From Cirrosporium novae-zelandiae (taxonomy: Eukaryota), in NCBI GenBank assembly GCA_026023565.1, contig JAPETS010000033.1, positions 186,001 to 250,000 of the forward strand: a stretch of 64,000 nt of DNA. The letters are read 5' to 3'. The position numbers and the translations under genes are program-made. The notes beneath the pieces were generated by a model. That model made no database searches, had not been told where the DNA came from, and saw only the letters and a program-made list of their open reading frames with translations. The stretch's first letter is position 1, and each line of letters opens with the position of its first letter. Shown here in pieces: positions 5,263 through 55,254 of the stretch.

Positions 5263-8200
5263 ATGTGCTTATTAAGAATAAACAAAAAGCGGGGGGGATG
5301 GCGAAGGCGAGCGGATGCCTCAAACACTTCGTCAGTCCCTGGCACACCCTTGACGGCTCAAGCAAATGAGGATAGGTCTGCATCGGCTTTGATGACCCAG
5401 ACAAACGAGGATGGGCCTGGGTCTGGAAGTCATCCAAGTGTATATCGTCCACCGGCCTTGAAAGATAAAGTAAATGCTAATCGGGGAATGCAACAGGCTC
5501 CCCAAACAAAAGACCAATCTCATAAAAGCCTCTGGGACCTTGCGTACGAGGATTTGCGTAATCAAAAAGACGGCCCCAAGCTTATTGAACGCTTTGAAAA
5601 AATATTGAATGATCAATCCAAAACCAAACAGACGACAATAACCCTGGGCAATGAAGACACGGCGACGAAGGAGGATCAAATGTCAGCACTGGTTAACAAA
5701 CAGCTTAAGAACATGAACGAGGAGAAGTGGAGGATCAAATTAATCGGCAAGGTTGTCGAGGTCAGGGAACAAGTCGACCGGGTAGTAAGCGTTGTGCGGG
5801 CTGTTAAAGAGTTTATTTCTCCATTCGCAGGCATCGACCCAATTCATGCTGGTTTACCCTTGGCTGGAGTATGCATATTGCTTTCTGTGAGTGAATCAAA
5901 GTCTCTCGATTTAATACCATTGAAGCTGACCACCATGACCGCAGCTCCTAGTGAACGATAGTCAAGAGCGCGCTGATGCGATTTATGGGCTTGAATACAT
6001 TACAGAATTGGTTCGTCGCTTTGCCGCAATTGAATACATATACTTGCAAGATGAAGAGTGCACGTATAAAGAAGAGCTTGAGGTTGTGGTGATAAAACTC
6101 TACAGCCAGATACTGGAATATGAAACCAGAGCGGCATGCCAATTCGATCGGAATACGGCCCTTCAAGTAGCGAGAAATGTTTTCAAAGCTGATGACTGGA
6201 AGGAGATTCTTGAGAAAATCAAGGAGTCAGAGGAGGCTTGTGATAAGCGCATCCGAACAATCGATGCTGGAGACCAGCGAACACGCGCAAAACGGTTAGA
6301 GAATACCCTCGAGAAACAGAATTGCGATATTTTAACGCAGCTCAAGTTGTCTCAAATACAATATGGAGAACTATTAAAGACTATCCAAGAAGGACAGAAA
6401 GAACAGGAAGAATGGGTCAAGGCTAAGGACGAGATGGATTGCCTTAAGGTCTTTCGGACGAGCACCTATGAGGATACTATGGAGAAGAATCCAGACCATG
6501 TACCTGGAACCTGCGAATGGTTCGTGCGGCATTCAAGATACCGCGAATGGCTGAATGGACCCGCATCAAATTTGCTTTGGGTAACGGCGGATCCAGGGTG
6601 TGGCAAGTCTGTTTTATCAAAATTCTTGATCAATAGCTACAAGAGCGAGAGACAAAAAGATACATCCAATACATCCATTTGCTATTTCTTCTTCAAGGAC
6701 GATAGCGATGAAAACAAGAGTGCAGCTCACGCTCTCTGCGCAATTTTGCACCAGCTCTTTGAACAGAATCCCGCATTATTAAAGCATGCCATGCCCCACT
6801 ACAAAAGAAACGACGGAATGCTCTGTCAGCTGCTCCAAATTCTCTGGGAAATCCTCATGGATGCTGCGGTAGATCCTAACAATGGTAATATTGTCTGCGT
6901 CATCGATGCCCTTGACGAGTGCGCTGAATCGAGCTGTGGAACACTCATCAACTGCTTGGCAAAATTTTACTCAACCGTGATGAATACGGCTACAAGGATC
7001 AAGTTCCTTATCACTAGTCGCCAAAATCCCTTCCTCGAACAAGTGTTCACCGAAAGATTTCAAGATCCGGCATCCCTTAGATTGATGGGAGAGAACGAAA
7101 GTGAGATGGAAGAAATATGTGTCGAGATTAATTTGGTCATTGAAGCGAAGGTGAAGGAATTTCAAGAGTTGAGATTGAAATATGGAATCCACGATGATGC
7201 GCACATCGCCGTCCAAAAGCAACTCAAAGGTATTGAAAATCGAACTTATCTTTGGGTGGCGCTTATCCTCCCTGAATTGAGAAAAATGGCTAAATATCCG
7301 GAGCATAAATTGTTAAAAACTATCAAAAACATACCATCGTCCGTTTCTGAAGCTTATGAAAGGATCTTAGAGAATAGCTACGACAAAGATATGGCTAGAA
7401 AACTGCTTCAAATTGTCTGTACGGCTATTCGACCTCTCACACTCGTGGAGATGAACTGGGCGCTATCGATCAACGAAGATGATTCCGTGGCTGAGTTATT
7501 TCCTCTACAATCATTTCCGGGTATAGTCAGAGACATCTGTGGGCTTTTTATCAGCATACAGCATTCAAAGATTTACCTCATCCATCAAACAGCAAAGGAG
7601 TTCTTGATTTGTGAAAACGTTAAGGAGTCTACTAATTCCACGGGGGATTGTTGGAAACATTTTCTCAAGCCAGCCGAGTCGAACCTCGTTCTCGCAAAAA
7701 TATGTATTTCGTACCTCTTGCAGCCCGAATTTGAAAACGATCCTTTAATTGTGGATGGCAAGCTCGAATATAAGAAAGCTAAAACATGCACAGAAGAATA
7801 CGCAAATAAACACGGCTTTCTTCTTTATTCAGCAGAACACTGGGCCACTCATTTTCGAGAAGCTGAAATTAAGGAGATAGAAACATGTTCATCAGTCATG
7901 GATCTTTACGATATTCAATCCAAGCGTTTTGTGACATGGTTTCAAGTATACCGGATGGCTGCCGTTGGTTGGTACTATGGATTCCCTCATAATTTTACCG
8001 ATCTTATAGTAGGATCGTATTTCGGACACGAAGTGATCGTGAAGCTATTACTTATGAGACCCACCGAATTAGAATATAAAGACGATTTTGGAAATACGCC
8101 ACTGCTGTGGGCGGTACAAAAAAAACATGAAGCGGTTGTGAAATTGCTGCTAGAAAAAAGCGCCAATCCAGAATCCAAAGATAAATTTGGCCAGACACCG

Positions 8201-9994
8201 TTATTGTGGGCGACAAAAAAAAGATATGAAACGGTTGTAAAATTATTACTAAAAAAAGGCGCTAATCTAGAATCTAAAAACGGTGATTATGGCGGAACAC
8301 CATTGTCGGCGGCTGCAGAATGTGGGCATGAAGCGGTCGTGAGATTGCTGCTGGAGAAAGGCGCCAATCCAGAATCCAAAGATGAATTTGGCCAGACACC
8401 GTTATCGTGGGCGGCACGAAACGGGCAGAAGAGGGTCGTGAAATTGCTGCTAGAAAAAAACGTCAATCTAGAATCTAAAGATGAATCTAGCCGGACACCA
8501 TTATCATGGGCTGCAGGATATGGGTATAAAACGGTCGTGAAATTGCTGCTAGAAAAAGGCGCCAATCCAGAATCCAAAGATGAATCTGGCCGGACACCGT
8601 TATTGTGGATAGCAGGGGCAATAGATTTGGAAATAGATGAAGATATATGGATAACAGAAAAAGAACGGGAGAATACGGTAAAATTTTTATTAGAAAAAGG
8701 CGCCAATCCAGAATCCAAAGATGAATCTGGCCGGACACCGTTATCGTGGGCGGCAGAATATGGATATAAAACGGCCGTGAAATTGCTGCTGGAAAAAAGC
8801 GCTAATTTAGAATCTAAAGATAATTTTGGCCGGACACCGTTATCGTACGCTGCAGAAAAAGGGCAGGAGAGAATCGTGAAATTTCTGCTAGAAAAAAGCG
8901 CCAATCCAGAATCCAAAGATAAATTTGACAAGACACCGTTATCGTGGGCGGCACAAAAAGGATATGAAACGGTTGTAAAATTGTTACTAGAAAAAGGCGC
9001 CAATCTAGAATCCAAAGATAATTATAACGAAACACCGTTATCGTGGGCTGCAAAATATGGGCATGAAACGGTCGTGAAATTGCTGCTGGAGAAAGGCGCC
9101 AATCTAGAATTCAAAAATGAATTTGGCCGGACACCGTTATCGCAGGCGGCACAAAAAGGACATGAAGCGGTCGTGAAATTGCTGCTAGAAAAAGGCGCCA
9201 ATCTAGAATCCAAAGATGAATCTGGCCGGACACCGTTATCGCGGGCGGCAGAAGAAGGATGTGAAGCGGTTGTAAAATTGTTACTAGAAAAAGGCGCCAA
9301 TCTAGAATCCAAAGATAATTATAACGAAACACCGTTATCGTGGGCTGCAAAATATGGGCATGAAACGGTCGTGAAATTGCTGCTGGAAAAAAGCGCCAAT
9401 CCAGAATCCAAAAGTGGATTTGGCCAGACACCGTTATCGTGGGCGGCAGAAAAAGGATATGAAACGGTTGTAAAATTATTACTAGAAAAAGGCGCCAATC
9501 TAGAATCTAAAGACGATAATTATAGCGGAATACCGTTGTCGGCGGCTGCAGAATGTGGGCATGAAGCGGTCGTGAGATTGCTGCTGGAGAAAGGCGCCAA
9601 TCTAGAATTCAAAGATGAATTTGGCCGGACACCGTTATCGTGGGCTGCAGGATATGGGCATGAAGCGGTCGTGAGATTGCTGCTGGAGAAAGGCGCCAAT
9701 CTAGAATTCAAAAATAAATTCGGCCGGACACCGTTGTCATGGGCTGCAGGATATGGGCATGAAGCGGTCGTGAGATTGCTGCTGGAAAAAGGCGCCAATA
9801 TAGAATCCAAGGATAATTTTGGCCGGACACCGTTGTCGTGGGCTGCAGGATATGGGCATGAAGCGGTCATAAAATTATTTCTCCAGAAAGGTGCAAAGTT
9901 AGAAGCTGATTCTGGTCGGACACCGCTATCGCGGGCTATAGAAAAAGGGCACGAGGAGATTGTGAAATTACTCACCCCTACACCAGACTCCTAA
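5263..9994 (+). CDS. Fungal NLR-like protein: N-terminal NACHT-associated domain, NACHT NTPase, ~19-20 ankyrin repeats
   Basis: SLWDLAYEDL N-terminal motif, Walker A ADPGCGKS, Walker B CVIDALDEC, YLIHQTAKEFL, then repeated GxTPLSWAA..GHE.VVKLLLEKGA. Intron 5887-5944 (GTGAGT..CTGAC..CAG). Start codon uncertain. Confidence 0.92.
8075..9975 (+). repeat. Tandem ~99-bp ankyrin-coding repeats with high nucleotide identity
   Basis: Recurring units such as gaaaaaggcgccaatctagaatccaaagat and ggccggacaccgttatcgtgggc at ~99-bp spacing. Confidence 0.95.
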
Positions 9995-11995
9995 TCCACA
10001 ATACTCGTCCTTACTCCCCATCTCCACGGTCCTTATTGTCGAATACCATAAAGACCCGATCGCGTTGGATTCCCAAAAGCGCTAGTGATTGGTCACGACT
10101 AGTATCATCCTTTCATATGTAAAATTCTCTTTCTTTCGGAGTCTAGGGGATAGCGCAACCGTGATGGACCTGAGCTTATCTCTCCATTCTTCAGTTATCC
10201 GTTCTGTGTCTTGATCTTTCATATCTGCTAGCTATTCATCCAAGTCAAAGTCTTAGGCGAGGAGATGAGGGAGAGAGCAGAAGCATAGCAAGGAAAAATG
10301 CAAGGGGCAAAGATTGACAAAGGGTTTTCATATTTCGATAGTTAGGTAATGTGAAGGAGTTCTGATTTTAGACATAAGGATCTAGTGTCAAGCAGTAAGC
10401 CAACACCCTTACCTATCCAAGCTGAAAGAACATGGAGTACCCATTGCCTTGGACGGATTTACCCACCATAAAGGTCATATAGCCTAGCCATGCCGTAACA
10501 TCTAGCTAGCTATAGATATAAAAGTGAGAGTGTCAAGGCGTAGCCCACAATGCTCCTTACCTAAGACAAGAGGTGTTGGGCGTAGTCGAACCAAGGGTTG
10601 GATTATGGTGGTCGTTTTGAGTCAGTTGGTAGTGCAGTTGTTAAGCCTGGCGCCCTCTCGGCCTTAACAGATATGAAGTGAAAGAGAAGTGAAGTAATGA
10701 TGAAGTCCTCCTCGGGCATGCGATATTCAAACGCGGAATCAAGGCTGTAGATAAGATAAACAAAACAAAAAGTACAAGTAAGATTGAAAAGGTGGGGATG
10801 CGGAATGTGAAAAATCCCATCTTTCTCGTCCTCGGTCAGGATATGTAAAGAGAATCAAGTGGGTAGGTTGAAAAGGGGTAAAGGTTGGGAGGCTGAGAGG
10901 TTGACAGATAGGTATTGTTAGTCTGAGGCGTGTCCATCTTACCTTAGACTGATGGTCTTAGGCAGACAAATAATTGACAACTCACATGATATCTGATAGT
11001 TATCCATCTGAGCAAACTATGAGAGCCTCAACTACCTAGGTAGGTAGGAGAGAAGATGGAATGGTGAGAGAGAGAGAGAGGTAGGGCACGGCACACCACA
11101 TCATAAACAAGCACGAGATAGTAAACATTGATGAAGCCCTTCTACTTTCGATTTCTATTGTCACGTAAAAGGGAATTTGGGCAAGAGAAGTTCTAGAGAG
11201 GAAGCATGGAAATGGTTGGATAGTAATGGTGTAAGGATACGCGACGCGTGCAGGGAAGCGCGTTATGGATACGCGTAACTAGGGAGATAGAGAAGGTCAT
11301 CATACTTACTATGCAGCGATCAGCTAAGGAAGGGAAATTGATCCTATCCTATGGAGAAGGACAGCTTTCAAGCATATATTACGACATGATTCTAATATTA
11401 AACATCAGTATCTACCGATAGTAGATATCCAGGGGGTCGACGAGCTGAAGAAGAACAACTCAAAGGCGCTATTCTAAAAGAGTATTAGTGCTATATGTAT
11501 CGGCCGAGGGGAAACTCTCCGCTTCCTTCACCAACCCACTCGCTCACTCCTCCTACCAATTATATACATCCCACAGCAGCTTCCACCTCGTAATTACGAC
11601 TAGCCGACTCGGATATTATTCTTAGAACCGAACATGATCCTTCGCATTTGCAAATCATTGCCTGCCGGTCTTTTTTTTCTACCCGGCACAGATCGACCGA
11701 ATTTCAACGGGCCTCGGTTTTAGGGCTTCGGTTCCGAACTTCTTTGTTGGACCCGATCTACAATACAATGTTGATGGATTTATTTCTCCGTCTCTTGCTC
11801 TCTCGGTGTATATATATGTCTACTATCTCGAGGTTTGAGGGAGATCTGTACAAGTTCATCTGCAAACAGTTTATTCATTGAATTATTTCGACAAATCTAT
11901 TTCATATTCCCATCTTCATATCTCATCATCAAAACCCTCTTCATAACTAAATCCATACCAACCTTCATACCCAACTTCAAATCTCTACTCAAACC

Positions 11996-43049: not shown

Positions 43050-44455
43050 TTGGGGTATATAACTATTATAGCAATAAAATGATAGGCAATGAATAAACAA
43101 GTCAAAGAAGAATTAACTTTACGAGGGACTAAACGACAACAACTTTGCAAATAGCTTATACAAAGGATTTATGAGAAGACATGGAATTCAAAAGAAAGGA
43201 CTTGAATGAATTAAAAGCTCTATAGGCAATGCAGCGCCGTTTGAGGCGAAGCATTTTTACATGGGTTCTGTAACCGCCGTGGACGCCTCACCAGCGAGGT
43301 CCCATAGCCAACGGTTATAAGCAAGGAGCATGCTATGATCCAATCAGTAGAAGGCGCCAAGATCACAGAGGAAACAAGCAAGCATCAGAAAGCAGTGCCG
43401 CAACAGATACTCCACTCAAGAAGTTAGGCAGCATTGACCTGTCGAGAGATTTCTAGGAAATGATTTCAGATTCAGCCTGGGCGCAATAGTAAGCCTCTCA
43501 TCTAATGAACAACACATATTCAAGCGATGATAACAGAATATAGAAAGAAGCTGAAGCTGTAGCAAGGGCAAAGTTGTAGAATAAGCGAAGGCCACTCGGG
43601 CGCGCAATGCCGAAGTACCGAGGTACCTAACCGGGCCACTGACACAAAGTGATTCCTCAATCCTCAGGCATCAATCAAGGCCTACCAAAAGCCAACGAAA
43701 GACCTACGACAGACCAAGCGAAAACATGGCACATGCTTAGGTGAGTATAACGACAACGACAAGGAAAACGAAAACGACTCGCATATAACAATACTTAAAA
43801 TTCAAAGGATGCAAAGATTTCAAAGCATCATTCCACCAACTCGCGTGCCTAAGGTGTCGACGCCGGACGAGTTTTCGGATGATGATCCGTTTTAGCTGTA
43901 AGTTTAACATCCACTGTCTCCACTACTTATGTTCACCATGCCTATAATAACACAATCTCCTACGACTGTTCCTGAAAATTGATTCTTCCTTCTGCTTAGA
44001 AATTCAATCTATCATCGTAGGAAACGGCTCAACATCAATCCCCGCGACACCCCAGCTGAGCCCTGCACCATGATCAAGATATACAAACGGTGGAACTTCA
44101 CTCCGTCGATCACTATTCTTCCAGTTGAATCACAATTGTTGCTCCGTATCCCAAGAGTGATAGGCTATGACTCTTAGATATCGGCGGACGAATTTCTGGT
44201 CGTAATAAATTTTAGTCCAAGTCATACGAAAAATATAGGAACAAGAGTCAATACTTACCCTGTTATTTACCGTAGACTAGTAAGGTGGGTCTGGATAACG
44301 CTATAAATTCGTTTTCACATGTATATATATATCTCTGTCCTTTCTCAGTTTCTTCTATCAAAATCTCAATTGGAATCATAACATTTTTTCTTACCCTACA
44401 ATTGACTGTTCCAACACCTTGACCAAGATTCATAAAGACACCAGAAGCAACAATC

Positions 44456-45808
44456 ATGGGATCCATCCAACAACCCACACGCTATCCTGCTGAGCATGTG
44501 GATCCTTCACCACTAAGCAAACCTCTCAAATTCCACTTCTCAGGCAGGTCAGCACCAAATCGCTTCCTCAAAGGAGCCATGTCGGAGCGTCTCGCCTCCT
44601 GGCATCCCACAAACCTTGAAGCCCGTGGTATCCCCTCACAAAACCTCGTAAACCTCTACAGACATTGGGGCGAGGGTGAAACCGGTCTCCTCCTAAGTGG
44701 AAACATCATGATTGAATACGACCACCTAGAATCTCCAGGAAACATGATCATCCCACGGGATGCACCCTTCTCGGGGCCCCGCTTCGACAGTTTTAAAGCC
44801 GTTGCCCAGGCAGGAAAATCCCACGGTTCCTTGATGATTGGCCAGGTCTCTCACCCAGGTCGACAAGTAACCGACAACGTTCAAAAGAATCCCATCTCTG
44901 CCTCGGACATCCAGCTCCTGAAAGGTTTCCCTGGCATGAGTTACGCAAAGCCTCACGCCGCCACCCAAGAAGAAATCAACAACGTAGTCGACGGCTTCGC
45001 ACATGCAGCCGAATTTCTCCAAAAGGCTGGCTTTGACGGGATCGAACTTCACGGCGCCCACGGGTACCTGCTCTCCCAGTTCCTCTCCCAAACAACGAAT
45101 CTACGCAAGGACGCCTACGGCGGCAGTCTAGAAAACCGAACTAGGATAATCGTTGAAATCGCCGCAGAAATCCATAAGCGCGTCCCCAAAGACTTTATCC
45201 TGAGCATCAAACTCAACAGCGTCGAATTCCAAGACAAGGGCCTCACGACCGAGGAAGCCAAAGCCGTAGGCTCCATCCTAAACCAACACGGCTTCGATTT
45301 CATCGAGCTATCTGGCGGGACATATGAATCCTTCGGCTTCAAACACGTCAAAGAATCAACCGTCGCCCGCGAAGCATTCTTCATTGAATTTGCCGAACTC
45401 ATCGCCCCGGCCCTTGACAACACCAAGTCTTACCTAACCGGCGGCTTCCACACTACTCCCGCCATGCTATCCGCTCTAAAAACCGTCGACGGCATCGGTC
45501 TCGGCCGCCCCCTCTGCCAGGAACCCGACCTCTCCGCAAAGCTGCTCTCCGGCGCCGTCAACGCCTCCATCCATCCCGTAGAACCATTAGCTTCTGACAT
45601 GATGTACGGGACCCCCTTGGGCGGCGCTCAGATCCGCGAGATATCCGAGGATTTGATGCCGCTTGATGTGAGCGTGCCGGCCAACGCGGCTGCTTTCATC
45701 GAGGATCTGAAGAAATCTATAGAGGTTAAGGCCAAGGATAAGGAGGGCGTGATTTATAAATTCCCGAAGATGAGCATCGAGGAGACGTCGTATCCGGTTA
45801 GCCTGTAG
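44456..45808 (+). CDS. NADH:flavin oxidoreductase (Old Yellow Enzyme family)
   Basis: NRFLKGAMSE, QVSHPGRQ, AGFDGIELHGAHGYLLSQFLS, DAYGGSLENR. Confidence 0.93.
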   Translation: MGSIQQPTRYPAEHVDPSPLSKPLKFHFSGRSAPNRFLKGAMSERLASWHPTNLEARGIPSQNLVNLYRHWGEGETGLLLSGNIMIEYDHLESPGNMIIPRDAPFSGPRFDSFKAVAQAGKSHGSLMIGQVSHPGRQVTDNVQKNPISASDIQLLKGFPGMSYAKPHAATQEEINNVVDGFAHAAEFLQKAGFDGIELHGAHGYLLSQFLSQTTNLRKDAYGGSLENRTRIIVEIAAEIHKRVPKDFILSIKLNSVEFQDKGLTTEEAKAVGSILNQHGFDFIELSGGTYESFGFKHVKESTVAREAFFIEFAELIAPALDNTKSYLTGGFHTTPAMLSALKTVDGIGLGRPLCQEPDLSAKLLSGAVNASIHPVEPLASDMMYGTPLGGAQIREISEDLMPLDVSVPANAAAFIEDLKKSIEVKAKDKEGVIYKFPKMSIEETSYPVSL

Positions 45809-50825: not shown

Positions 50826-51684
50826 GACTGATGTTTGTTCTAAATCTTATTAGTAGGCTATATGGGAGCAGATCAGCTTGCGTACCGTTCATTGTTATCC
50901 CGGTTCTCGGAACTTTGGACCGGGTTATGGACTTCGTTGTTTGAGCCTGCGGAGTTGAACGCTAGAGGAATTGATATATATAGCTCCAAAATCTTGAAGG
51001 GGCTTCTTTATAGTACATCAGACACGGAAGATATTTTCTCGCGAATTGATCTTCCAACAAACTCTTTGCTAGAAGGGGGGAGTTCAATAGGATTATGAGA
51101 TAATACAGAGTGTGTGTGAATCTCCTGAAGTTACGTAGTTGTGAAGAATGAAAATCTCTCTCCTAATCCCTCAAAAAGACCATTGCAAGTATACTGTATA
51201 AAGAAAAAAAGAAAGCTTAGACACAATTGAATAGATTTAAGAACATTTAGCCGCTTCGGCTTGGGATATAAGTACATAGAAGGCGGGACGGACGCCATGT
51301 AATCTTTTTTGGTTGTAGCCTGATGTGGCTCAATGTAATCATTAAGGCTATGCTTAGTTAATCCTTGAATTATTTAAAAAACCAGAAATTAATGGTGAAA
51401 ATTGACCTCATCGCTACCGTTAGCAAGGGGGGCAGAAGGTTATAGCTTGGCACAGGAGTCTTTTAGGGTCGCATTGGGTATTGATCCCAACTACCTAGGT
51501 ATACGCTCGGCCCTTTAATGCCAACCTACCACATGGTTGAACTTCAATTAGACTATAGAGCGTTGGAAGTGAAGCTGCATGTACTTAACGCCACGATGAC
51601 ACTTCATCATACACCTTAAATGCAGCCTGCATCGCAAATTTGAGATTTAGAATAACTCCTGGTAGTGTTGGCCAAATACGATGT

Positions 51685-51895
51685 CCCCTAAAGCGTCTTC
51701 CAATGGCTACCACTAGTAGGGATGTTATGTAAGGATTATGGTAGGTCAGATAACTATTTTCAGGCAGAGTTAAATATCAAGTTCTTTGCTGAATTATATT
51801 GAGCCTCAAGATCTTATCATTGGACTTATTGATCCTCCAGTTTTACCCCCTCCCCCCCCCCTATTAGTGGTAGCCATTGGAAGACGCTTTAGGGG
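51685..51895. repeat. 31-bp perfect inverted repeat with ~150-bp spacer (MITE-like)
   Basis: cccctaaagcgtcttccaatggctaccacta at 51685-51715 and its reverse complement at 51865-51895. Confidence 0.9.
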
Positions 51896-53539
51896 GTAAG
51901 GAATAGATATAGAACCTGACAACTCAAGCTGCGACTAATAGTAGTTCAGGCTTGCGTCAAGCGTAAGCATGCTACGTAAGAACTTTTATAACTGCGGCTC
52001 TTTTGCAAAATAAACTTTTAAGTAGTATTTCATATCTTATACCCTAGCTTGCACATTAATTGTCTTCTCACACGTAGCCTACACCCCCAGGACTGCAACT
52101 ACACTCTTACAAGAGTCGTGTTATAGGGTGGCTGCAAGTGTACACTTCTTAGGGCGCCCCAAGCCTGCGGCTTCACCGTTTTCTCCTTGTATAGGTAACC
52201 AGTGTTAGGCGTAATCGAACTGACAGCTCGGTTTAGCTTAACGCCTTGCTTTAACAACGTTGACATTGAGGTCCGTGTGGGGATATACAGGGGCTTTAGA
52301 TAATTCGTGGGGGATATGCACGGACAGTAATGTACTAAGTACACTAACTACATTGAATTGCGACTACACTATTATATAATAAAATTGATCTTATCATCGC
52401 TTTTTAATTAAAATAAATATAAACAAAATTTTCGTTAAATATATTTTTATTATAAGGCACCTAGGTTGTATATCCTAATACTTTGTATCCGTTTAAATAG
52501 CATGTCCTTTTGGTTTATTTAGGTAAGAGTGTTGGTTTGCTGTTACGGTAACTAGGATTATAACACTAGGGTTCTAGCCTTAACGTAGCTTGGGCGCCAC
52601 ACTTTTAGAGAGCTTCAGCCCAACAATCAAGCGTATTACCATCAAACAGTAAGACCCTTCAGTAGGTGCTTTTGGACTTGCCTTCTCACAATTTTGCTAT
52701 ATCTTTGAAATATATACTTTACTAACATTATTGACGTCTCAAAATTTTGTCTATGCTAAGCATACAAGGTTTTAATGGATCCACGTATATGCCAACACTG
52801 TAAAGGGGCTTGGTGGCATAATGCATTTTGAAAGTAGACTGTCGATCTACCAACCACTTTCCAGCTTTTGCAAGTCTAGCATCAGTCGCCGAGCGTCGGA
52901 CACCGAGGGAACGATCATCACATTTTACCTACTACTAGCTCACAAGACTGAGGTTGAATTGAAGATTGTGAAATCATGTGATATAGTATAGTATTTGTGT
53001 CCTTTAGGCTTGGTGTCTCCGGGTATAATAAATTATTACCATTCCCAACTTTAAGAAGTGTATGGAAGTACGCTACGCACTGATTCTCTAAGAGGTATTA
53101 AGTAGCCCGAGTATCTAGCTATCTCACCCGGGATTTAAAACTAATGAAAGAAATTAACTGTTATTTGTGGAAGGGACAAATCAATATGGAAGATTGTTTA
53201 TTTAATTTATGACCGAGCAGTGAATAGTTTATATAAGGGGAATATAAGGGGCGCGCGAACACGCATTCGATGCCTGGTCACCTGATTTTGCTGTGCCTGA
53301 GGCATTGTAACATCATTGCCTAAGGCGAGCCGTTTAGTCCCTCACGAGGTGGCGCAAGTAATGCATATGCAGCTATCTCAAAGTGGAGAAGCTACTCGGC
53401 AAATTATAAGCAGATGGCTAGTTTTAAAATTCATAACAGTTCTAACTTTTATACAAGTTGGGAGAATTATGTTCAGGCCCGTTCTTTTGAGAAATTTATA
53501 ATTCTAATATTGAAAGTCTAAAGAGGGATCGAACTCGTG

Positions 53540-55254
53540 ATGGACGTTGTTGGGTCTGTGGTAACCATCCTGACTCTGGCGCAAACAGTCATTTCGATAT
53601 GCATCAAAGTACGCGCAACATGCAAATCGAATTCTGGCTTTGATACCGTATTTGATTCAGCTATTCTTGGTGCTGAAGTTCAGGTTCAACGGCTCGTCAG
53701 TTGGAGCTCGTCTTTTCGTGCCGAGTCTTGTTCCGACCCTTTGCGCGACCTCCTGGGTCGTGTTCTCCAGACTGTAGAAGTGGAGATCAAAACGATCCAT
53801 GGGTACATAGAGAAGTATATGCCCGGAAGTGATAACCCACTGAGTAGCCTATCTATTGAGGAGCGTTTAGATGTTTCATCCTTGCCAACACAAAAACAGA
53901 CTCAATTTGACGATCTAGGCAATACATCTATCAAGAAAAAAGGACCATCGATAATCAACAGATTTCATTATGTGATTTCTGACAAAGATAGGTAGGTTTA
54001 TTATCTCGAACCGGGTAGAAGTTAAAGGTTTCTCGTGACTGACTAGAATATAAAGGCTACTGTCGCATTCGGCAGCGCTCGAGAAGGCCGTCGATCAACT
54101 TCATGCGCTCCTGCCTGCAAATAGGCAGTTGACGCTTGAGCTCAAGTTCCTTGCAAGCTTGTTAAAAACTGATGATATCGATGAACTCAGTGCTATCGCA
54201 TCCTCTACTGGTAGTCATTCATACCAGAATATCCAGTCAAGCGCATCAATTAAGGCTGCCCGAATCAGAGGAGAAATCCTTCCGCGTTCTACGAACAGGA
54301 TGTCCAAATTATTAGACTGCAATCGGCAGGGTTTTAGTCTCGAGAGACGCTGGGAAGGGAAGGATATCGGAACGTATGAAGGGAGGAAAGTTCTCGTGGA
54401 GTGGAAAACATGCACTGATGAGCTTTCGGTTGAGGAATCCACACATCGAATTGCTGATGTTGCGCGACTACTTCATCAAACAGGTGTTACTAGGCCAAAG
54501 GATCTCATAGCTCTGGATTGTTTGGGCTACATGAAGAAGCCACCATCCATTGGACTTGTATATGCACTACCCCTCACATATTCCGAAAGACTCCCCAAAA
54601 GTCTCTTCAAACTTCTCTTAGACAAGGAGAGTGACCCAAGCACATGGCCGTCATGGGAGCAGAGGCAGAAGCTGGCTTGGGTTTTAGCTCGGGCAGTCTT
54701 CCAGCTCCACGTTGTTGGTTGGCTTCACAAAGGCATTCGACCACAGAATATAATGTTCATTGGTGACGGGAAATCTTTAAAATCGCCTTATCTGATTGGT
54801 TTTGACTATGCAAGGAGAGGAGAATATGGAGAAAAAACCGAATCAACAGATCCGGCTTTCGATTTATATCGACATCCCTTTGCACAAGGCGAAGCTCGAT
54901 CAAAGTAAGCCTTGATTAAACTTTGACACTCAAAACTCATAATTTGACTCCATTTTTAGGTTTCAAGCATCTTTTGATCTCTTCGCTCTTGGGCTTATAC
55001 TCCTAGAGATTGGGATTTGGGGCAGCCTCCAGGATCAACGTCAACCATTGGAGAATGAGTTTAAGGGCTCAAGCCAAGATGCGCAGACTAAATTTCATTG
55101 GCTGCTGATGGAAGGAAAGGGACCGTTAAAGCACTTGCCATTCTATATGGGAAACAAGTATTATGATGCCGTCAAGACTTGTCTTTCCATTGATCCTGCA
55201 GATCTTACTGAAGATGTGTATATAACAGATATCATTGCGAATCTGGAGAGCTGA
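53540..55254 (+). CDS. HeLo-domain plus pseudokinase protein (MLKL-like architecture), 3 exons
   Basis: Hydrophobic N-terminal helix, QRLVSW and RFHYVISDKDR..DQLHALLP (HeLo-type). Kinase-like VLVEWK, WLHKGIRPQNI, LIGFDYAR, LYRHP and DLFALGLILLEIG. Introns ~53991-54055 and 54905-54959. Confidence 0.8.

Follow-up and report, generated by a model that had tools for sequence, protein, structure and literature searches.

In animal necroptosis, the kinase RIPK3 phosphorylates the pseudokinase MLKL, and in fungi the known executioners with a HeLo domain, HET-S and HELLP, are switched by amyloid templating from NOD-like receptors (NLRs). MLKL homologues are reported from fungi and plants, with unclear relationships (PMC11476962), and a 2025 review places some fungal HeLo-like domains on kinase or pseudokinase proteins and asks for further study of these (PMC12881547). 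Here, we describe such a gene in a 64,000-nucleotide stretch of DNA from Cirrosporium novae-zelandiae, hereafter the window (GCA_026023565.1, contig JAPETS010000033.1, positions 186,001 to 250,000 of the forward strand). Its product, P0001, combines an N-terminal HeLo domain with a kinase domain that has lost its catalytic residues, and the gene lies head-to-head with another that encodes an intact kinase followed by ankyrin repeats (P0159). It belongs to an annotated but uncharacterised family and represents a variation on MLKL. In the open-access text of PMC and bioRxiv (supplements aside), we found no paper on "DUF7580", the Pfam family of its kinase-like part, and no description of a kinase partner or of the motifs of this family; what appears to be new is the conservation of a kinase partner and the retention of a phospho-acceptor and its pocket, as described below.

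Under our splice model, the three exons of the gene (Table 1) give a 531-residue product that is letter-for-letter identical to the database entry P0001, a hypothetical protein of C. novae-zelandiae. The stretch flagged in the preliminary description of this DNA (54330-54900) falls inside exon 2, and the open reading frame (ORF) at 54129-54908 of the plus strand holds, in translation, WLHKGIRPQN, LIGFDYARRGEYGEKTESTDP and YRHP. P0001 matches two Pfam families above their gathering cut-offs, HeLo (PF14479) at residues 17-197 with 30.1 bits (cut-off 23.2) and DUF7580 (PF24476) at residues 332-512 with 29.5 bits (cut-off 27), and it reaches 20.6 bits with Pkinase, under the cut-off of 31.7; exon 1 searched alone returned no Pfam HeLo match. 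An AlphaFold2 model of the 531-residue protein, built with 149 aligned sequences, has a mean predicted local distance difference test (pLDDT) score of 87.7 and a predicted template modelling score of 0.89, and consists of an N-terminal helical domain, a disordered segment at 108-129, linker helices and a kinase fold at about 231-531. When the whole model was searched against the PDB with Foldseek and the hits were re-ranked with VIA-align, E values of about 1e-7 to IRAK4, JAK1 and ABL were obtained with the former, and with the latter residues 231-531 aligned best to MerTK (Z 22.3, root-mean-square deviation 3.0 Å over 263 residues), with BRAF, CRAF, CTR1 and JAK chains within one Z unit and all 1000 of the 1000 re-aligned chains at Z>=8.

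With HET-S and HELLP, the protein shares the HeLo domain, as seen with Pfam and with our family profile A1 (149 sequences, whole protein), which matches the HET-s/HET-S structures 2wvo, 2wvn and 2wvq at E values of 1.6e-23 to 1.4e-22, ahead of all kinases. It also shares a hydrophobic N-terminal helix, in which residues 4-22 form a candidate membrane-inserting segment by analogy with helix 1 of HET-S (PMC12881547, section 18). In each case the gene is clustered with that of a sensor, which is an NLR for HET-S and HELLP, whereas the putative sensor here is the kinase-ankyrin protein. The C-terminus differs as well: where HET-S has its prion-forming domain, P0001 has a 300-residue, confidently folded kinase domain (pLDDT 88-98) and no prion-forming or amyloid motif. 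Because this C-terminus is a pseudokinase, control by phosphorylation or binding, not by amyloid templating, is suggested, and the modelled linker helices may play the part of a brace.

The family is large: an exhaustive HMMER search gave 3725 cluster representatives with E<=1e-3, of which 2200 reach E<=1e-10. Its neighbours in the ESM Atlas are all HeLo/DUF7580 clusters, and where members have a record, Ascomycota is the most frequent phylum. When we scanned 80 near-full-length relatives, leaving shorter ones out, a HeLo domain was found in 66 and a SesA domain in one, and in 8 of the 80 an intact N-terminal Pkinase domain precedes DUF7580 and takes the place of HeLo. Tandem kinase-DUF7580 pseudokinase proteins without HeLo are P0068, P0069, P0083, P0089, P0090, P0114, P0116, P0125 and P0007. 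A scan of genome contigs with the pattern GWLHKGIR returned 19 stretches, none of which was confirmed as a prokaryotic relative, which is weak evidence because the pattern is narrow.

The kinase-like domain lacks the residues of canonical catalysis, as judged position by position in 158 family sequences, fragments included. In phmmer searches against PDB sequences, WLHKGIRPQNIMF (containing WLHKGIRPQN) aligned with vHRDLKPeNllF and vHGDLKPSNVLI, and LIGFDYAR with IIDFGFAR, placing G377 at the position of the catalytic Asp and G399 at that of the DFG Asp. The preliminary description had read the HRD loop as HKGIRPQN without a catalytic Asp, DFG as replaced by GFD and the Gly-rich loop as absent, and on all three points it was right. 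H375 and K376 are found in 154 and 149 of the 158 sequences; at position 377, 145 have G (83), S (28), N (23) or A (11) and 6 have D; and the catalytic-loop Asn, N382, is present in 139. G399 is kept in 147, followed by F or Y at 400 in 148 and by E (63) or D (55) at 401. There is no GxGxxG in P0001, whose β1-β2 stretch reads RRWEGKDIGTYEG, and no column of this stretch is Gly in more than 78 of the 158 relatives. In β3, E266 falls on the K of VTIK in mouse MLKL in an alignment of hidden Markov models (HMMs) and is E in 140 and D in 8 sequences, with K or R at position 268 in 133. The distance from E266 to L286 of αC is 20 residues, presumably the same as between the Lys and Glu of kinases. 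Asp at both 377 and 399 occurs in none of the 158 sequences (D377 goes with G399 in 6, and D399 with S377 in 3), which, together with the kinase fold, supports the earlier inference of a non-catalytic domain. As these substitutions run through the 158 sequences, the degeneration of the active site is a family trait and no accident of one gene. By alignment, the domain is a pseudokinase that would be unable to catalyse by the canonical route, with the β3 Lys replaced by Glu, the HRD and DFG Asp residues each replaced by Gly, and no Gly-rich loop.

In human MLKL, the corresponding elements are VAIK (K230), HG(330)K(331) and GFE(351), with T357 and S358 as RIPK3 sites, and in mouse MLKL the residues named are K219, Q343 and S345 (PMC6013482). 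Of the human motifs named in the preliminary description (HGKIRSSN and GFE), the triplet HGK and GFE agree with those given in that paper. Its broader claim, that the fungal domain is degenerate in the same way as MLKL, applies to one of the motifs: DFG has become GFE in MLKL and GF[E/D] in the fungal family, and the two are aligned in the comparison with mouse MLKL, but the HRD triplet and the VAIK position differ. The triplet is HKG in P0001 (HK[G/S/N] in the family), HGK in human MLKL and HRN in mouse MLKL, which reads LHRNISSSS and GFE in the HMM alignment, and the catalytic-loop Asn that the fungal family keeps is Ser in the mouse protein.

At the level of the whole protein, the order of parts is the same as in MLKL, with a helical domain of the membrane-attacking type, linker helices and a C-terminal dead kinase domain of the tyrosine kinase-like (TKL) type. 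The N-terminal domain is a HET-S-type HeLo in the fungal protein, whereas it is the four-helix bundle MLKL_NTD in MLKL; the relation between the two is treated in section 18 of the review cited above (PMC12881547). Searched against PDB sequences, profile A1 scored MLKL at 46.9 (4btf) and 43.5 bits (4m68), with IRAK4 as the best non-MLKL kinase at 42.5 bits. Profile A4, made from 27 short, pseudokinase-only members, had MLKL in all of its first ten distinct PDB sequences (42.9-36.3 bits), with LIMK1 (36.1) and IRAK4 (35.8) as the best other kinases; the aligned region extends from αD to αF, with the catalytic loop, GFE and activation segment in between. Over both profiles, the lead of MLKL is 1-7 bits and limited to this αD-αF region. 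We read the domain as a TKL-type pseudokinase whose nearest solved relative would be MLKL by sequence profile, though not by fold search. Plant MLKLs (AtMLKL1-3) and wheat Pm13 offer a further parallel, compared here by description only, in that they too join a HeLo-type bundle to a kinase-like domain and have a role in immunity or cell death (bioRxiv 10.1101/681015; PMC10951266). The N-terminal domain of the plant proteins is annotated as DUF1221 or MLKL_NTD-like, and Pm13, unlike P0001, keeps all catalytic residues.

The Thr and Ser residues that follow GFD (EKTESTDP) had been proposed as activation-loop phosphosites. Of these, T412 is conserved, with S or T in 147 of the 158 sequences, whereas S or T occurs at 414 in 15 and at 415 in 50. 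Canonical kinases have their primary activation-loop phospho-acceptor at a set spacing, as does PKA with T197, and in 75 of the 114 sequences matched by a pattern, T412 lies 11 residues after the last residue of GF[D/E], which we take to be that canonical position. Active RD kinases bind the activation-loop phosphate with basic residues (R165, K189 and H87 in PKA). In P0001, the Arg of HRD is matched by K376; R404 follows GFD by three residues (150/158); and αC carries R282 (127/158), which we equate, by its spacing, with H87 of PKA. An S or T at 412 occurs together with K or R at 376 and 404 and K, R or H at 282 in 122 of the 158 sequences, and the four residues would lie close together in space. 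In a profile-profile comparison with hhalign, T412 shares a column with the nearly invariant activation-loop Thr of the family of the neighbouring kinase (T291 of P0159, in KSKTEG), and in the alignment with MLKL it falls on T353 of the mouse chain, four past the residue that, by our own reading of the offset, is S345. The conserved Ser/Thr is in the same stretch of the activation loop as the targets of RIPK3 (mouse S345, human T357/S358; PMC6013482).

P0159 has the motifs of an intact kinase (GRGGFG, YARK, HKDIKPGN, DFG and APE), followed by ankyrin repeats, and the pieces of its ORF match Pfam Pkinase with 99.5 bits as well as ankyrin families. We consider it a candidate upstream kinase of the pseudokinase. 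It resembles LRRK2 and RIPK4, the latter of which we take to have a kinase-ankyrin architecture, in joining an intact kinase to ankyrin repeats, while itself belonging to a subfamily with HKD in the catalytic loop (best match CDK2). Compared with the RIPK3-MLKL pair, the candidate fungal kinase has ankyrin repeats, and no death domain, ROC-COR or RHIM was seen in it, the RHIM not having been searched for.

The arrangement recurs at other loci. We collected metagenome contigs through the sub-family alignment A2 and used the best 80 of 218 confirmed loci, a set drawn by two peptide patterns and one sub-family alignment. Active-kinase ORFs were recognised by a catalytic-loop and a DFG motif within one ORF, to which four Pfam-confirmed ORFs that the motif had missed were added; two earlier custom kinase HMMs had found 11 and 15 ORFs and missed most of the neighbour kinases. 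The counts are probably lower bounds, since detection hinges on the detector, and zones and strands of the same loci served as an internal control. The 162.7 kb lying 0-3 kb upstream of the pseudokinase genes hold 18 kinase ORFs (0.111 per kb), all 18 on the opposite strand, compared with 2 in the 212.6 kb at 3-10 kb upstream (0.009 per kb), 4 in the 160.6 kb at 0-3 kb downstream (0.025 per kb) and 2 in the 212.3 kb at 3-10 kb downstream (0.009 per kb). This is an excess of 18 over an expected 5.65 ORFs in the near upstream zone (Poisson P = 2.7e-5), and the uniform orientation has p = 7.6e-6. Of the 51 loci whose upstream sequence reaches 1.5 kb or more, 18 show a divergent kinase. The 18 paired pseudokinase genes have pairwise identities of at most 65.5%, and of at most 42% barring one pair, and as they share so little identity the pairing is not one syntenic block sampled repeatedly.

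Pfam confirms 13 of the flanking kinase ORFs, of which 10 belong to the divergent set of 18. Ankyrin repeats follow the kinase at 10 of the 18, and in 6 of the other 8 no more than 1.4 kb of contig remains beyond the kinase ORF. The partner gene has a Pfam HeLo match, one of them below the cut-off, at 12 of 20 kinase-paired loci. At three further loci (L066, L073 and L077), kinase and pseudokinase are fused in a single ORF, an architecture as in plant tandem-kinase resistance proteins. The partner kinases belong to at least two subfamilies. The HKD type of the window kinase is also present at L001, L009, L019 and L049, of which L001 shares its N-terminal domain and ankyrin repeats too. The larger, non-RD type is TKL-like, with LRRK2, MLK-family kinases (MLT/ZAK, MAP3K9) and TAK1 among its best PDB matches, and has either HGD (L010, L011, L026, L030, L039, L043, L045, L055, L060, L063, L078 and L080) or HCD (L027, L041/L042 and L064) in the catalytic loop. 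By hhalign-type profile-profile comparison, the two partner-kinase families are equally near to the pseudokinase (probability 98.0 vs 97.7). NLR-type genes with NACHT, WHD and ankyrin regions adjoin HeLo-pseudokinase genes at L052:1412-5944 and L049:12201-16129, both on the minus strand.

We hold it to be probable, if by no great measure, that the gene encodes an MLKL-like executioner, in which a HeLo domain is governed by a dead kinase switch that is phosphorylated at T412, likely by the divergent neighbour kinase. The pseudokinase domain would keep HeLo inactive until T412 in the activation segment becomes phosphorylated; the phosphate would be read by K376, R404 and R282, and the pseudokinase would flip and free HeLo, which would then cause membrane damage and cell death. 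P0159 is the most likely kinase to write this phosphate, and its ankyrin repeats could act as the sensor. What the sequences show directly is the domain architecture, the absence of catalytic residues throughout the family, the nearness of its profiles to MLKL, the conserved T412 and basic residues, and the repeated occurrence of a divergent kinase gene; auto-inhibition, phosphorylation, membrane attack, cell death and an activating role of the neighbour are inferred. A more far-reaching version, which we put forward tentatively and which is possible but rather unlikely to hold as a whole, is that ascomycetes have a two-gene phospho-relay that parallels RIPK3-MLKL without amyloid, in which a kinase-ankyrin sensor, mostly of the non-RD type, is encoded head-to-head with a HeLo-pseudokinase and phosphorylates its invariant Ser/Thr (T412), a basic pocket reads the phosphate, and HeLo is freed. 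The locus in the window offers a concrete pair, a HeLo-pseudokinase with a candidate acceptor and a candidate phosphate pocket adjoining an intact kinase-ankyrin gene. If the pair does work in this way, phosphorylation-driven, necroptosis-like death is no invention of animals, and a family of thousands becomes a system in which the gating of a membrane-attacking domain by a dead kinase can readily be studied; if, moreover, the shared GF[E/D] reflects common descent, the MLKL-type pseudokinase switch is older than the split between fungi and animals.

Several observations weigh against the executioner reading. The β3 Lys is kept in MLKL (K230 in human, K219 in mouse), whereas by alignment it is Glu in the fungal family (E or D in 148 of 158). 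With profile A1, the lead of MLKL over IRAK4 is just 1-4 bits, and MLKL chains are absent from the best 50 rows of both Foldseek (IRAK4, IRAK1, JAK1, ABL) and VIA-align (MerTK, BRAF, CRAF, CTR1, JAK). In the AlphaFold2 model, the activation segment is ordered (pLDDT 90-93), and for this reason T412-E413 could be structural and no phospho-acceptor. As to the partner, 33 of the 51 loci with sufficient upstream sequence show no divergent kinase, at 8 of the 20 kinase-paired loci the N-terminal region has no Pfam HeLo match, the 2.7-kb spacer in the window compares with 45-1076 bp between stop-to-stop ORFs at other loci, and P0159, as an HKD-type kinase whose nearest PDB relative is CDK2, differs in subfamily from most partner kinases (HGD/HCD, TKL-like). 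Finally, we found neither expression data nor, in the open-access literature searched, any experiment on a family member.

Among other readings, the one that survives best, though we think it unlikely, is that the dead kinase domain is a decoy or sensor that baits a foreign effector or ligand, with HeLo freed by the binding or modification of non-self and the neighbouring kinase-ankyrin protein acting as a separate or parallel sensor. The fusions of the family to intact kinases without HeLo (8 of 80) resemble plant tandem kinase-pseudokinase proteins (PMC10951266), kinase domains have been proposed as integrated decoys of fungal NLRs (PMC12258605), and the 33 loci without a divergent kinase fit a bait as well; but a bait would have no need of the S/T in the canonical acceptor site and the three basic pocket residues that 122 of the 158 sequences combine, and the strict head-to-head arrangement of the kinases, with all 18 encoded on the opposite strand, would be left unexplained. 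More improbable still is a non-lethal scaffold, in which the neighbouring kinase has the pseudokinase as its allosteric partner, as happens in other pseudokinase-kinase pairs, HeLo only tethers the complex to membranes, and signalling proceeds without death. The conserved kinase/pseudokinase pairing and the fusions would suit such a role, and plant MLKL immunity is described as separable from cell death (bioRxiv 10.1101/681015), but no segment of the protein is more hydrophobic than the N-terminal helix. That the domain is an atypical enzyme, binding nucleotide and catalysing through non-canonical residues such as N382, D/E401 and K268 (N in 139, D or E in 118 and K or R in 133 of the 158 sequences), is very hard to credit: the Gly-rich loop is missing, the Ala of VAIK has given way to a bulky residue (138 of 158 have L, I, W, V or F) and the Lys, by alignment, to Glu, the HKGIRPQN loop has no Asp, and 0 of 158 sequences have both catalytic Asp residues.

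Table 1. Features of the window, with positions counted from its first letter and residues numbered in P0001 unless stated otherwise.
Feature	Position	Strand	Basis or remark
NLR-type ORF, 1351 residues	5939-9991	+	NACHT_N, NPHP3_N (NACHT), winged-helix, many ankyrin repeats
Old-yellow-enzyme-type NADH:flavin oxidoreductase ORF	44423-45808	+	PF00724, E 2.4e-34
Divergent Ser/Thr kinase and ankyrin gene, product P0159, 1040 residues	47453..50846	-	Pfam on ORF pieces, database protein
Spacer between the divergent genes, 2.7 kb	50847..53539	.	no ORF of >=85 residues
211-bp element with 37-nt inverted ends	51685-51895		in spacer; ends 97% complementary
HeLo-pseudokinase gene, 531-residue product	53540-55254	+	3 exons; splice model
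Exon 1	53540..53991	+	residues 1-150 plus 2 nt; N-terminal part of HeLo; splice model, identity to P0001
Most hydrophobic 19-mer, residues 4-22	53549..53605	+	Kyte-Doolittle 2.06; within model helix 2-30
HeLo domain (PF14479), residues 17-197	53588..54194	+	Pfam; spans intron 1
Intron 1	53992..54055	+	64 nt, GTAGGT...AAAG, canonical GT..AG
Exon 2	54056..54904	+	end of HeLo, linker helices, pseudokinase N-lobe through activation segment
Linker ("brace-like") helices, residues ~198-236	54195..54311	+	DSSP of AlphaFold2 model: helices 192-201, 205-225, 232-236
Pseudokinase domain (DUF7580 / kinase fold), residues ~237-531	54312..55251	+	spans intron 2; Pfam, VIA-align, pLDDT 88-98
β3 VLVEWK, residues 263-268	54390..54407	+	E266 at VAIK-Lys position
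R282 in helix αC	54447..54449	+	proposed phosphate-pocket residue
Pseudo-catalytic loop HKGIRPQN, residues 375-382	54726..54749	+	G377 at catalytic-Asp position
GFD replacing DFG, residues 399-401	54798..54806	+	phmmer and HMM alignments
EKTESTDP, residues 410-417	54831-54854	+	activation segment
T412, conserved activation-segment Ser/Thr	54837..54839	+	candidate phospho-acceptor
YRHP, residues 422-425, counterpart of APE motif	54867..54878	+	Y 148, H 151, P 148 of 158; aligned with MLKL YVSPE
Intron 2	54905..54959	+	55 nt, GTAAGC...TTAG, canonical GT..AG
Exon 3	54960..55254	+	remaining C-lobe (FDLFALGLILLEIG onward) and stop codon
DUF2235 / Tle1-like α/β-hydrolase ORF, 575 residues	56237-57964	-	E 1.3e-87; His/Gly/Asn-rich low-complexity insert
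ORF pieces matching animal haem peroxidase and cytochrome P450	60492-63631	+	same direction

The 211-bp element in the spacer between the two genes looks like a miniature inverted-repeat element, with no second copy elsewhere in the window. The DUF2235 ORF is convergent with the HeLo-pseudokinase gene; as a recurrent neighbour of the family such a Tle1-like hydrolase was rejected, with none at the 80 fetched loci. Further away, the pieces that match haem peroxidase and cytochrome P450 may be exons of one fused peroxidase-P450 gene of the fatty-acid oxygenase-like kind, and the fungal NLR-type ORF near the start of the window coincides with a strongly purine-skewed stretch (8001-10000).

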